Shown here in pieces: positions 10,368-55,925 of a stretch of 64,000 nucleotides of DNA (the stretch's first letter is position 1; each line of letters starts with the position of its first letter). The DNA is from Seison nebaliae (Eukaryota). The DNA is taken from assembly GCA_023231475.1 (NCBI GenBank), contig JALJEE010000715.1, forward strand, positions 1 to 64,000. Reading direction: 5' to 3'. The translations under genes were made by a program, and so were the position numbers. A model generated the notes under the pieces. That model saw nothing but the letters and a program-made list of their open reading frames with translations, made no database searches and was not told where the DNA came from.

Positions 10368-11621
10368 ATGGATAAGGAAGGTAATCGAATTGTGGTTTGT
10401 GATAATGGAACTGGATATGTGAAATGTGGAGAGGCTGGTTGTAATTTCCCTCAACACATCTTCCCGTCCCTAGTTGGACGTCCGATGCTGAGATATGCTC
10501 GACGAGTGGGAAATGCAGAAATTAAAGATTTGATGGTGGGAGAAGAAGCGGCGTCTGTTCGTCAAATGTTGGAGATATCATATCCGATGGAAAAAGGAAT
10601 AGTGAAGAATTGGGAGGACATGAAACATATTTGGGATTATACATTTAGTGAAAAAAAAATGAATATCGATTTTGATCGATCGAAAATTTTGTTAACTGAA
10701 GCACCATTAAATCCGGTACAAAACCGTCGAAAATTATTGGAAGTGATGATGGAAGAATATGGATTCAATGCTTGTACTGTCGCTATCCAAGCTGTTATGA
10801 CATTATATTCCCAAGGTGTCACCAGTGGTGTGGTAATTGATTCCGGTGATGGTGTGACACATATCTGTCCAGTGTATGAAGGTTTCGCTCTCGAACATTT
10901 GACGAAACGTTTAGATATCGCTGGAAGGAATATCACTCAATATCTGATCAAACTCTTATTTTCCAGAGGTTATGCATTCAACAGTTCAGCTGACGCAGAA
11001 ACTGTGAAGAAGATTAAAGAAGATACTTGTTATGTAGCGTACGATATTGCGAAAGAAACAAAACTCGCACTAGAAACGACGACACTTGTCAAAAAGTTTT
11101 TTTTGAAAATTAAAAAAAAAATTATTTTATTTTCTAAATTTCAAAATTGTCATAGATATAATTTACCGGATGGAAGACATATTAGAATAGCGGCTGAGAG
11201 ATTCCAAGCACCAGAATGTTTATTCCAACCGAATTTAATCGATGTTGAATCGAAAGGAATGGCGGAACTTTTATTTGATACAATTCAATCGGCCGATATC
11301 GATGTACGATCGAGTCTATATAATAAAATTTATTTGAGTGGCGGTTCTACTATGTATCCGGGACTGCCGTCAAGATTGGAGAGAGAACTCAAACAATTAT
11401 ATTTGACGAAAGTATTGAATAATGACGAGAGTCGATTGAAGAACTTCAAATTGAGAGTGGAAGATCCACCTAATCGGAAACATATGGTGTTTTGGGGTGG
11501 GGCCGTGTTCGCTAATTTAATAAAAGATATCGATTCATTTTGGATAAATAAACAAGATTATTTTGAGTTAGGTGTCGATAAATGTTTAGAGAAGTTGCAA
11601 CAACGTCGAATTTTAGGTTAA
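10368..11621 (+). CDS. ACTR2: Actin-related protein 2 (2 exons; intron 11096-11155; 397 aa spliced)
   Basis: [42 protein letters not shown]. The ORF-track insert [20 protein letters not shown] is a 60-nt in-frame GTT...TAG intron whose removal gives [18 protein letters not shown]. Confidence 0.97.
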
Positions 11622-14600
11622 ATCTCAAAAAACACATTCCAACAAACATCAATTTCATTTTCACTACGGTTTCAAATTGCTGCAATTTATTTCCATTTCT
11701 TCTTCGTCGTCTTTTTTTGATAAATAATTTATTCTATTCCTTTTTTTCAATTAAAATCGATTTTTATACAAATATTTTGTTTTGGTTTCATATGAGAAAA
11801 ATTGAGAAATTTGAAGATTGTAAAGGAGAATTTAAATGTGTTTTTAAAAAGTGGTTCGTTGTGAAATATCATCAATTTCTAATCAGATCTTATCAAAATC
11901 ATATTCTGAGCAATCGTACGTGCAAAAAGAGGAATGGAATATATAGAAATTAATTGGAGTGTGTTGAAAATTATTGGTGTTTTTTTCTTAAGGAATAGTA
12001 ATAGGAATATGGTATTGGAACGGCATGGTACCGTGTTGTTGTCGTCATGGATATTATTGTTTATGATTTGAGTACAATCATTGACTTGTATCTTCTTATG
12101 TTTTTAGGACATCAACGAACAAGTTGAATAAGATGGTGATTATGAGAAATACATTTAATTGAACATCGAACATGTCTAGTGCACATTGGAGAGATGTTGT
12201 CAAATTAGTAACTCGATTCCGTTTGGAGTATGTGAATAGAATGATAACACTTCTAATAATGTTCATAAAATATTTCAATTTCCATCATTATTACTCACTC
12301 AAGCACATATCGCCTTGATAGTTAAAGTTCAATCATTATCCTGTGCACACTTATTGCACTAAAAGTGAGATCTTTATACATTTCTCTCATTCCGTCCTGT
12401 GACATTTCTCCTTAAAAGTCTCATAAGTCAAAGAGAGTTGTTGATGAAGAGAATTGTTGAAGATTTCTTTAGTTTCACTAAAAGAATGTTAAAGAATGAA
12501 AAGATTGGTAAGAAAACATTATATTTTTCTTCTGCATATGATATGTTGTTTGAGTTTTGAATATTCGTCATCATGATAATGATTGACGGGTGTTCGTGAG
12601 TTGGAGTAATCGTCTTAAGAGATTTGAAGTAATATCAAAAATGGTTGTTATTAGAAGACGACAATAATATTGAATGATTTCAAATAAAATATTTTCATTC
12701 GGGTAGTTCGATTGGATTAATTATCAAATTAATCCGGTCGCTTTCCAATGTCGGAATCAGTGTTCAATAAACATAGGGAACGTATGAGGGGGGGTAAAGG
12801 ATTTCTTATCATTCTTCTCATTAAATTTGAGTGGTGAAGAAAGAGATTGGGTGCAACAGCAACCTTTTAGTGGCTAAAAGAGTCTTAGGTTAAGAGTGTA
12901 GGGAATTAATTATGTTTCCCTAAGAGTTGTAGTAATTCAATGAAATTCTTCTTATTCTCTTTGTCATTCGTAGGTGAATATGTACATGTAGGTACCCGGC
13001 GTTGGGTGACTGCGTAATGTCATATAATATGTCCATTTCTATAGGAAACATATCGTTTCGGTTTGTTGTTGTGTAGTAGTGGAAGTATGATAATTTCAAA
13101 TGATTAATTCTCTTTTTAAAAAATGGAGTGAAAAAAGAATAATGTCCCAGTTGGGGGAGGGGATGGAGGTAAGGGTGGTGTAGGAATGCATTCTCCATTC
13201 CATGTTATGTTTGTATTATATCATTTTGTCGTTCTATTCTATGTCTTTCGCCATTTTTCTTATATTATTGCTCTTTTACCACTATTCTTCCCAATTCTAT
13301 TATAATTATTTCTCCTATTATTATTAATTCTTCCACATATCTCTCATCCTTCGTCATTTCTCGTAATTATCATCATTGTTATCGAACGGGCATCAGATGG
13401 AAAAAAGAAAGAAAGAAAATAAAATAGTTGAAACTAATAGATTTAAAATATGAAGAAATCCTTCTTCTTCTTCTTCTTCTTCTTCTTTCTCCCATCCATT
13501 TCATAATATACGCCGACTGATATGATATCAAGCGAATTCGACTAATTTTGCTTCGTCTTCCCTTCAACCTTATTTGCTATCTAATATGCACATCATCATC
13601 TTATCCTAAAATGAGATGTATTTTAACTTTCCTCCATTTCCCATACAAATATACATTCCCGTCTTTCTTCTACGTATTTCCTACTACTTCTTCTTCTTTC
13701 TCGTCTACCCTTCTCAATCGTCATCTTCGTCTGCTTTCAAAAATGATCGTTTCTCCAATTCGCTCCACACATATGGTTCGAGATCGATAGATTACAATTC
13801 AATAGTGACTGATACAACAACAAATTCATAAGAATCAATTATTATTCAATTTCAATTCTCAATCATTTATCGTCGTTTCTATTAAAATATTTCCGTGCTA
13901 CTAACTTCACGTTAACTTACGTCATTCCACACAATTCTACTCTTTCTCTCCACCATTCTTCTTCATCAATATTTATTCACATTTCAGTGTGATTCTCTTA
14001 ATTATTTCGTTTAATTCGTGCACATAACACACGGCTCAATCTCTTTTGTCATTATAGAATCATTCTGATTCAAAAATCATCATCAACAATCGACTCATTT
14101 CTCAGTTAACTCAGTGAGTTGGTGATGTGTAATCACATTCATTTGAATCATTCTTTTTCTTTTTATTTCCCAACAAAATTATTTACGTAATTGATAATAT
14201 TTCCCTCATCATCATCATTGTCATCATGATGGTAATATGGTGATGGTACTTTAATGTGGATAGACGATCAGGAAAATATACGATCCGCAGGAAAAATACG
14301 AAATGTATTCTCGCAGAATGTATATAATGCGGCTCTTCTAGTCGCATGTGTTCGTAGGGAGAGATGTGTATGGATCATAAATGAATAAAATGGAATCGAA
14401 CGGAATATAATAGATAGATGGACAGATAGATAGATGAATAGATAGTAAAGATACTCGTTCTCTATATACGAGTATTATGGTGATTGATATGATGTGATTG
14501 TCTCCAATTGGATTCATTCATTCTTCAATTTTTAATATTTTATTTAATCTAATATATTATTTGGTCGACGATGCATTCATTCAATTGAAGATGATGTCGA

Positions 14601-54599: not shown

Positions 54600-55130
54600 T
54601 TATTTAAACATATTTGAAAGAATTCTTACTAAGTTTCCGAAATAATAAAATAATTTTCTTGTTTTTATTCCCTGGAAATTGTTGGAAAAGACTGCTTCAT
54701 ATTAAATAAACCATTCGGTTAAGTTAACTCAAAATATGTAGGAAGATCATAAGTAGTTGGGCTGAAAGTTGTATATAAATATCAGAAAGAAGAAATTGAG
54801 AAGATGTAAATTGAATTAAAATTTAGCAAAAAAAAAAGAGAAAACAATTTAAATAAGTTTTTTTTTTAAGTGTTCAAATAAAAGGTTGTGTGATGATGTA
54901 GATAAATGACACTGTTCGAATATTACATATCATAATATAAGGAAGGAGGTACACAAAATTAAGAAAGGAAAAGATGGAAAGGAAAAAAAAAGTTAATTGA
55001 CAATAAATTGATCAAATAAATATATAATGATATTTTCTTTAGGAATGTCATTCATTTGATTTTTTAGGAACAGTGCACTCATTATGCACCGATCTTCCTT
55101 ACAATTTTGGGCAATCATCAAAAGCTGAGA

Positions 55131-55925
55131 TTATGTACCACAGCACCCACTAGGTGGATTAGCACCTTGTTTATTTCTATCAGTGTTCGTAATCGGTCCC
55201 ACTTTTATTCCATTTGCCTTTGATAAATTTTTAAATGAAAGAATAACAGGAAAAATGATGGTAAGAGAACTTCATTATTGACATCGAATACTCCTTCTTG
55301 AATTTTCTCGTAAATCTCTTGAGCCGTATCGATAAATGCTTCTTCGACATTAGCAGCCGTTTTCGCTGATGTCTCCATGAAAATGAGACCGTGCTCATGA
55401 GCAAATGCTTCGCCTTCTTCACGTTGCACTTCACGTTTCCCATCAAGATCACTGAAAGAATAATTAATATAAATTAATATATCATAAAATTTATGTTAAC
55501 GATTTATTGCCGATTAACATGATGACCATATTGGAACTCGAATGTTGTCGTGCGTCTTCCAACCAATTAGTCAGATGATTAAATGTATCTCGTCGAGTGA
55601 TATCGTAGACGAGTAATGCTCCAGCAGCACCTCGATAATATGATCGTGTAATTGAACGGAAACTTTCTTGTCCTGCCGTATCCCAAATTTGTAATTTCAT
55701 TTGTTTTCCATCGATCGTAATCATTCGAGCACCGAATTCAACACCTGAAAGAAAAATTATTTTGAAAAATAAAATAAATAATAAAATGAAAATTATGAAA
55801 AGTGAACCGATGGTCAAATCGTGAACTGGTTGAAATCGTTTGTCGGTGAATTGAAGGAGGAGACATGACTTCCCCACACCAGTATCACCGATAATGATAT
55901 ATTTGAATAGATACGCATAAGACAT
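55131..55925 (-). CDS. RAB2: Rab2 GTPase (4 exons)
   Basis: [50 protein letters not shown]-terminal GCCGT. Introns 55745-55807, 55452-55500, 55218-55270. Confidence 0.98.

Follow-up and report, generated by a model that had tools for sequence, protein, structure and literature searches.

Every intron found in a 64,000-nucleotide window of the Seison nebaliae genome begins with GTT

Seison nebaliae, a seisonid rotifer (Syndermata), is found living on crustaceans of the genus Nebalia, according to passages of PMC8351084. The DNA analysed here (the window) is a 64,000-nucleotide (nt) stretch of one contig of this species, eukaryotic in character and with a GC content of 31%, in which introns were placed in 11 genes on both strands, namely Arp2, RSPH4/6, galectins A and B, NDUFB2, Rab2, ACADSB, genes labelled 'EMI-like', Ras-like and 'FSTL-like', and an orphan gene. 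All 29 introns are of the form GT..AG and carry a GTT donor. They are given below by window coordinates and strand, with the first six and last three bases and, in brackets, the evidence for each; HMM stands for a profile hidden Markov model and NCBI model for an NCBI protein model.

11096..11155, plus strand: Arp2 intron, 60 nt, GTTTTT..TAG, in frame without a stop (protein homology)
24193..24236, minus strand: RSPH4/6 intron 1, GTTAGG..AAG (NCBI model, HMM, transcript)
23951..23999, minus strand: RSPH4/6 intron 2, GTTTTA..CAG (NCBI model, HMM, transcript)
23787..23834, minus strand: RSPH4/6 intron 3, GTTTCT..AAG (NCBI model, HMM, transcript)
23643..23683, minus strand: RSPH4/6 intron 4, GTTGGA..TAG; in-frame GTA 9 nt upstream unused (NCBI model, HMM, transcript)
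23436..23486, minus strand: RSPH4/6 intron 5, GTTTAG..TAG (NCBI model, transcript; HMM alone slightly favoured a GC donor)
23273..23329, minus strand: RSPH4/6 intron 6, GTTAGA..AAG (NCBI model, HMM, transcript)
22805..22846, minus strand: RSPH4/6 intron 7, GTTTTT..TAG (NCBI model, HMM, transcript)
22686..22726, minus strand: RSPH4/6 intron 8, GTTCGA..TAG (NCBI model, HMM, transcript)
26020..26063, plus strand: galectin A intron, GTTTTC..TAG (frame, transcript)
28398..28447, plus strand: galectin B intron, GTTCCT..TAG (frame, Pfam continuity)
31802..31852, plus strand: 'EMI-like' (SNEBB_000160) intron 1, GTTTTA..AAG (frame, NCBI model)
31987..32028, plus strand: 'EMI-like' intron 2, GTTATT..TAG (frame, NCBI model)
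32203..32247, plus strand: 'EMI-like' intron 3, GTTAAA..AAG (frame, NCBI model)
32355..32416, plus strand: 'EMI-like' intron 4, GTTAGT..CAG (frame, NCBI model)
34890..34936, plus strand: NDUFB2 intron, GTTAGT..AAG (frame only)
41043..41111, minus strand: Ras-like intron 1, GTTCAT..TAG; in-frame GTAAAT 9 nt upstream unused (transcript)
40919..40985, minus strand: Ras-like intron 2, GTTTAA..TAG (transcript)
40747..40814, minus strand: Ras-like intron 3, GTTATT..CAG (transcript)
40107..40159, minus strand: Ras-like intron 4, GTTAAA..TAG; GTAAGG 5 nt upstream unused (transcript)
46638..46686, minus strand: 'FSTL-like' intron 1, GTTAAC..TAG (transcript)
46148..46195, minus strand: 'FSTL-like' intron 2, new, in frame, GTTTGA..CAG (transcript)
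45470..45535, minus strand: 'FSTL-like' intron 3, new, in frame, GTTTTC..TAG (transcript)
54269..54324, plus strand: orphan gene intron 1, GTTAAT..CAG (frame only)
54440..54508, plus strand: orphan gene intron 2, GTTAGT..TAG (frame only)
55745..55807, minus strand: Rab2 intron 1, GTTCAC..CAG, in frame without a stop (PDB alignment, transcript)
55452..55500, minus strand: Rab2 intron 2, GTTAAC..CAG (PDB alignment, transcript)
55218..55270, minus strand: Rab2 intron 3, GTTCTC..AAG (transcript)
57329..57390, minus strand: new intron in the ACADSB 5' leader, GTTATT..TAG; one transcript model has it spliced, a second retains it (transcript)

The departure from the animal splice code in the window is confirmed as real and is backed by transcripts. 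The original prediction had listed 26 introns in 10 genes, all starting with GTT, and this was borne out: all 26 end in AG, and their excision yields stop-free proteins in 10 of 10 genes. Its counts of A at +4 (12/26) and of G at +5 (7/26) were reproduced as well. The transcript evidence consists of GMAP alignments of assembled transcripts against the genome (Additional file 2 of PMC8351084), among the 19,906 rows listed, where the rows of one contig (at least 55) match the window coordinates to the base. Within the window, at least 20 intron-sized gaps occur in at least six transcript models; all 20 of the listed gaps start with GTT, each has exactly one GT/GC-AG placement, and 10 of them are free of sliding ambiguity. 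Seventeen of the 26 introns coincide with listed transcript gaps to the base (eight in RSPH4/6, three in Rab2, four in the Ras-like gene, and one each in galectin A and the 'FSTL-like' gene), and the nine that have no spliced row among the rows listed are those of Arp2, galectin B, the 'EMI-like' gene (four), NDUFB2 and the orphan gene (two). The transcript rows added three further introns (45535-45470, 46195-46148 and 57390-57329, all on the minus strand), which served as a blind test and are GTT in 3/3 cases. Two of these lie in the 'FSTL-like' gene, for which the single intron proposed originally did not hold, the transcript rows giving three. The introns at 11096-11155, 55745-55807, 45470-45535 and 46148-46195 are a multiple of three in length and contain no in-frame stop, and are thus hidden within long open reading frames (ORFs); two of the four had been missed before.

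Homology supports the same junctions where it had been invoked, that is, in Arp2, Rab2, RSPH4/6 and galectin B, through PDB alignments, the HMM and Pfam. Left unspliced, the Arp2 intron forms a 20-residue insertion relative to PDB Arp2, the Rab2 junctions are placed by PDB alignment, and the Pfam profile runs contiguously across the galectin B splice, with positions 1-97 and 98-131 on its two sides. The NCBI protein of RSPH4/6 maps onto the window with eight introns, 8/8 of them GTT. When the GT/GC-AG alternatives that lie within 30 nt and keep the frame were all scored against an HMM of 90 non-Seison RSPH4/6 homologues, the GTT donor was best in seven of the eight introns; a GC donor was 2.4 bits ahead at intron 5, and a GTA/GTG alternative was best nowhere. 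The donor of intron 5 is taken as GTT because the transcript settles it. For RSPH4/6 and the 'EMI-like' gene, the rebuilt proteins agree letter for letter with the NCBI protein models, which in the 'EMI-like' gene covers four introns beyond the transcript set; such models are predictions and therefore lend only partly independent support. An RSPH4/6 exon shows 100% identity to 'hypothetical protein SNEBB_000157 [Seison nebaliae]' (accession KAI3387592.1), and an exon match in NCBI identifies the 'EMI-like' gene as SNEBB_000160 of the same species.

Within the window, T follows 39.8% of the 5,569 GTs, and it follows 11 of the 21 GTs that lie inside intron bodies. The chance of obtaining 29/29 GTT donors is P = 2e-12 at the window rate and 7e-9 at the intron-body rate, and the 20 transcript-backed introns alone give 2e-6. 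Counted by intron, the share of GTT donors has a 95% lower bound of 0.90; the bound is 0.86 in the transcript set and 0.76 when genes are counted.

The introns are 41-69 nt long (median 51) and consist of 52% T and 5% G. Their acceptors are TAG (15/29), AAG (7) and CAG (7), with TT at -6/-5 in 19/29, and none of the five branch-point patterns tested on the 29 introns rose above shuffles. The donor is fixed at +1 to +3 only, with a purine at +3 in 0/29; T occupies +4 to +7 in 10, 10, 12 and 13 of 29, the 29 donors comprise 20 different hexamers, and GTTTGT occurs in none of them. G at +5 is weakly but clearly enriched (8/29 versus a background of 5.4%, P = 1e-4), whereas G at +6 (2/29, P = 0.47) is at background, which argues that the normal donor register is kept and disfavours a one-base shift; A at +5 is likewise at background (9/29, P = 0.52). 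The minor (U12-type) donor motif RTATCCTT was found in 0/29. The most similar of 406 intron pairs scores 39, within the shuffled range of 28-50, so the 29 introns are not one family. In Rab2, introns interrupt the coding sequence after bases 118, 362 and 543, positions presumed to match those of vertebrate RAB2A introns, and this presumed match suggests that old introns were converted in place.

Standard donor sequences are available beside several of these junctions. Within 20 nt of 10 donors there are 13 GTA/GTG sites, and in 5/29 introns the standard U1 small nuclear RNA (snRNA) has a better match in such a site, which is nonetheless unused; four of these introns are transcript-backed, and in two of the four the bypassed site is in frame, so that decay of frameshifted mRNA cannot hide its use. 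Across 20,757 coding bases from 14 genes of the window, neither GTT (observed/expected 0.97) nor GTRAG (1.24) is depleted in exons. GTA is depleted (0.66), which might have signalled still-working GTA donors; CTA, however, is depleted as strongly (0.53-0.55 against 0.48-0.59 by codon phase), which amounts to a general avoidance of TpA, and the exon counts speak neither for nor against such donors.

The GUU donor is very probably the rule throughout the S. nebaliae genome, a likely extrapolation from one contig. Its cause is given an even chance of lying in U1, where the snRNA of S. nebaliae would carry A in place of the pseudouridine at position 6 and would thereby demand U at +3. Position 6 of the standard U1 would accept A by Watson-Crick pairing or G by wobble, hence the purine of animal donors, while A at this position would pair only with U, turning a two-letter choice into one and leaving the partners of +4 and +5 unchanged. 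As GUU alone is poor in information, the spliceosome would also lean on intron definition, recognizing a very short, U-rich intron that ends in UUNYAG/AAG. After hand-over, the U at +3 would face G44 of U6, and a G-U pair there is plausible without a change in U6. Of the original prediction, the invariant U at +3 is supported, now with transcript evidence on one contig, whereas an altered U1 (A at position 6) or altered U1C, U6 or Prp8 is a candidate cause. The donor profile favours the normal register, is in this way compatible with the proposed change at U1 position 6, and disfavours a shifted register.

Several observations weigh against this reading. The sample is one contig with 11 genes, and reading frame alone supports three of the 29 introns (one in NDUFB2 and two in the orphan gene). 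On the U1 side, an Rfam scan of the window gave no match at gathering score, two weak unrelated matches at E up to 1 and no Seison snRNA, and a pattern for the U1 end matched once against 6.4 matches expected; no spliceosomal protein of S. nebaliae was read in the window. U1 pairing is weak overall, since even the A6 variant forms on average 6.1 of 11 Watson-Crick pairs (26 introns) and A at +4 (13/29, P = 0.06) and G at -1 (8/29, P = 0.19) are only marginally above background. That +3 is absolute while its neighbours are loose may instead indicate a check at the catalytic stage or by a protein, and GTT is not avoided in exons. Moreover, in passages of the survey by Roy and Bowser (10.1101/2022.06.08.495308), most lineages with atypical donors (yeasts, Giardia, Thecamonas and Micromonas) kept a standard U1, but the changes there are at +4.

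If U1 were standard or weakened, the activated spliceosome could impose U at +3 at a later point, through U6 (position 44 or a G-U pair) together with changed contacts of SF3B2, Prp8, Yju2, U1C or LUC7. This explanation, tentative but the likeliest among the alternatives, accommodates a +3 that varies no more than +1 and +2 do, next to looseness at every other position facing U1, and it agrees with the pairing of U6 G44 with +3 in the Bact spliceosome, stabilised by SF3B2 R554 (passages of 10.1101/2022.04.05.487178), and with the several atypical-donor lineages that retain a standard U1 (passages of 10.1101/2022.06.08.495308). It fits less well with U6, which is described as the most conserved snRNA, with the lack of enrichment of U at +4 (10/29 against a 52% background), the mark of a U6-dominated donor without N6-methyladenosine, and with Entamoeba, the one published +3 change found, which in passages of the same source came with a U1 change. 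Mutation pressure and selection for U-richness might instead have fixed GUU under an unchanged but tolerant machinery that defines short U-rich introns by length and composition, as the T-rich, G-poor intron bodies, the lack of an enriched branch-point motif among the five patterns and the free occurrence of GUU in exons would allow. This explanation is unlikely: T is not fixed at +4 to +7, A or C follows 10 of the 21 intron-internal GTs, the composition-based P is 7e-9, and the bypassing of better canonical GTA sites beside the junction is left unexplained.

A local or sampling effect, in a genome that mixes GTT with GTA/GTG donors, is very improbable. The data do come from one contig, with the lower bound of 0.76 when genes are the unit, and the transcript rows listed cover only part of the window's genes; however, the 11 genes are unrelated and lie on both strands, all three blind introns are GTT, and the spliceosome acts genome-wide. 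Hardly any weight falls on a standard U1 that pairs one base out of register or with +3 bulged, or on introns that are recent copies of one GTT-carrying intron-generating element. The standard U1 forms 4.7 pairs in the shifted and 4.9 in the bulged arrangement against 5.1 in the normal register, neither G at +6 nor A at +5 is enriched, and the pairwise similarities within the shuffled range and the variety of hexamers argue against recent copies.

Among known systems, Entamoeba offers the closest parallel, as five species combine a GUUUGU(U) donor with a co-evolved U1 snRNA ACAAAC in passages of Roy and Bowser (10.1101/2022.06.08.495308). Entamoeba and Seison share U at +3 as the rule and canonical GT-AG ends. 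However, the Entamoeba of those passages is an amoeba poor in introns, whose long and rigid donor is fixed from +3 to +7 and changed at both +3 and +4, whereas Seison is an animal with intron-rich genes (eight introns in RSPH4/6), in which the donor beyond GT is fixed at +3 and no further, with +4 to +6 loose, and in which the branch-point patterns show no enrichment. The Seison donors resemble the Entamoeba system at +3 and do not belong to it, having no fixed GUUUGU. Major (U2-type) animal introns have GURAG donors read by pseudouridines 5-6 of U1 and the ACAGA of U6 (passages of PMC8283771 and 10.1101/2022.04.05.487178); Seison introns share with them the GT-AG ends and a residual G at +5 in the normal register, have what may be a pyrimidine-rich acceptor, but lack any purine at +3 (0/29) and bypass canonical GTA/GTG neighbours. 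The copepod Eurytemora affinis is likewise an animal lineage that departs from the standard donor rule, with GA/GG donors in about 12% of introns in passages of PMC5714493; there a minority class is changed at +2, whereas Seison keeps the usual +1 and +2 and departs at +3 in each of the introns found.

Searches for intron-bearing rotifer relatives returned none; if a leaning towards GTT already existed in bdelloids or acanthocephalans, Seison would be the end point of a trend. In the literature covered, no paper was found that describes GTT donors as the norm for Seison or for any animal; most subscription journals lie outside this coverage, and a published donor logo may exist. Papers that name Seison together with splice sites do not describe donors in the passages concerned, and PMC10125929, PMC13161344, PMC7310846, PMC2642717, PMC10639083 and PMC10158995 are term matches whose passages hold no donor data. 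Scans of other public sequence with a U1 pattern gave no matches in viral contigs and seven in prokaryote genomes, five of which are stray eukaryotic U1 genes, the four aligned ones having the standard end. A pattern for U1 with a base other than T at position 6 matched four times in JGI metagenomes; none is U1 by Rfam, and these matches have no bearing on Seison. The eukaryotic U1 genes, and one U2 gene, on contigs of bacterial genome bins are host or neighbour contamination, and two intron-bearing eukaryotic Rab genes also occur in bacterial genome bins.

The remaining genes of the window include four single ORFs recognized by Pfam scan.

3549-5342, minus strand: cyclin, long single ORF
19408-22005, plus strand: tetraspanin-like protein with a long tail, long single ORF
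32528-33814, minus strand: bHLH protein, domain split by a long insertion, long single ORF
57800-57994, plus strand: small DUF4535-like protein, single ORF, score below cut-off

The identity of NDUFB2 also comes from the Pfam scan, and a PDB search with its exon 1 gave no match. The labels FSTL-like, EMI-like and Ras-like have no Pfam match in the pieces scanned; the Ras-like gene (36221-41274, minus strand) encodes 1,598 amino acids, with a GTPase-like start and a long insertion followed by a low-complexity tail of about 1,300 amino acids. No relative listed for the ACADSB protein exceeds 55% identity, which indicates a long branch. ACADSB and Rab2 stand in tandem (57321-55131, minus strand), about 115 nt apart, with transcript rows that abut at 55947-55949, and are possibly a read-through or operon-like pair. 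Close upstream of the ATG at 10368 (plus strand; Arp2), 27858 (plus strand; galectin B), 48024 (minus strand; 'FSTL-like') and 55925 (minus strand; Rab2) lies a pyrimidine-rich stretch ending in TAG or CAG, with no donor shown, and these stretches are possible trans-splice acceptors. At about 30500-31150 and 34460-35120 the contig depth is about 10x that of the flanks in both DNA runs, and these stretches are short repeats of the genome. The two sequencing runs that cover 21900-41700 behave as DNA, and two further runs contributed no coverage; neither pair is evidence on expression, and no RNA source appeared among the sequencing runs listed.

Taken together, it is somewhat probable that S. 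nebaliae is the first animal in which an obligatory GUU has replaced GURAG as the donor code of the major spliceosome throughout the genome. U1 (or the +3 pocket of U6 or a protein) would then have changed to compensate, thousands of old introns would have been converted in place, and the standard GUA/GUG donor would no longer work. The pairing between U1 and the intron start is treated as fixed in animals, since thousands of introns should fail together if it changed. If the rewriting is true, an intron-rich animal in which the purine at +3 has become U everywhere would show that a lineage can carry such a switch through to the end, and it would serve as a natural experiment on whether the rule at +3 is set by U1, U6 or a protein. 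It would also bear on the co-evolution of splice signals and machinery, a question called open in passages of Roy and Bowser (10.1101/2022.06.08.495308). With the public assemblies and RNA data for two Seison lineages, bdelloids, monogononts and acanthocephalans, the switch could be dated on the tree by computation. In practice, donors of the Seison lineage would be ranked wrongly by gene predictors and splice-strength scores whose training came from other animals.

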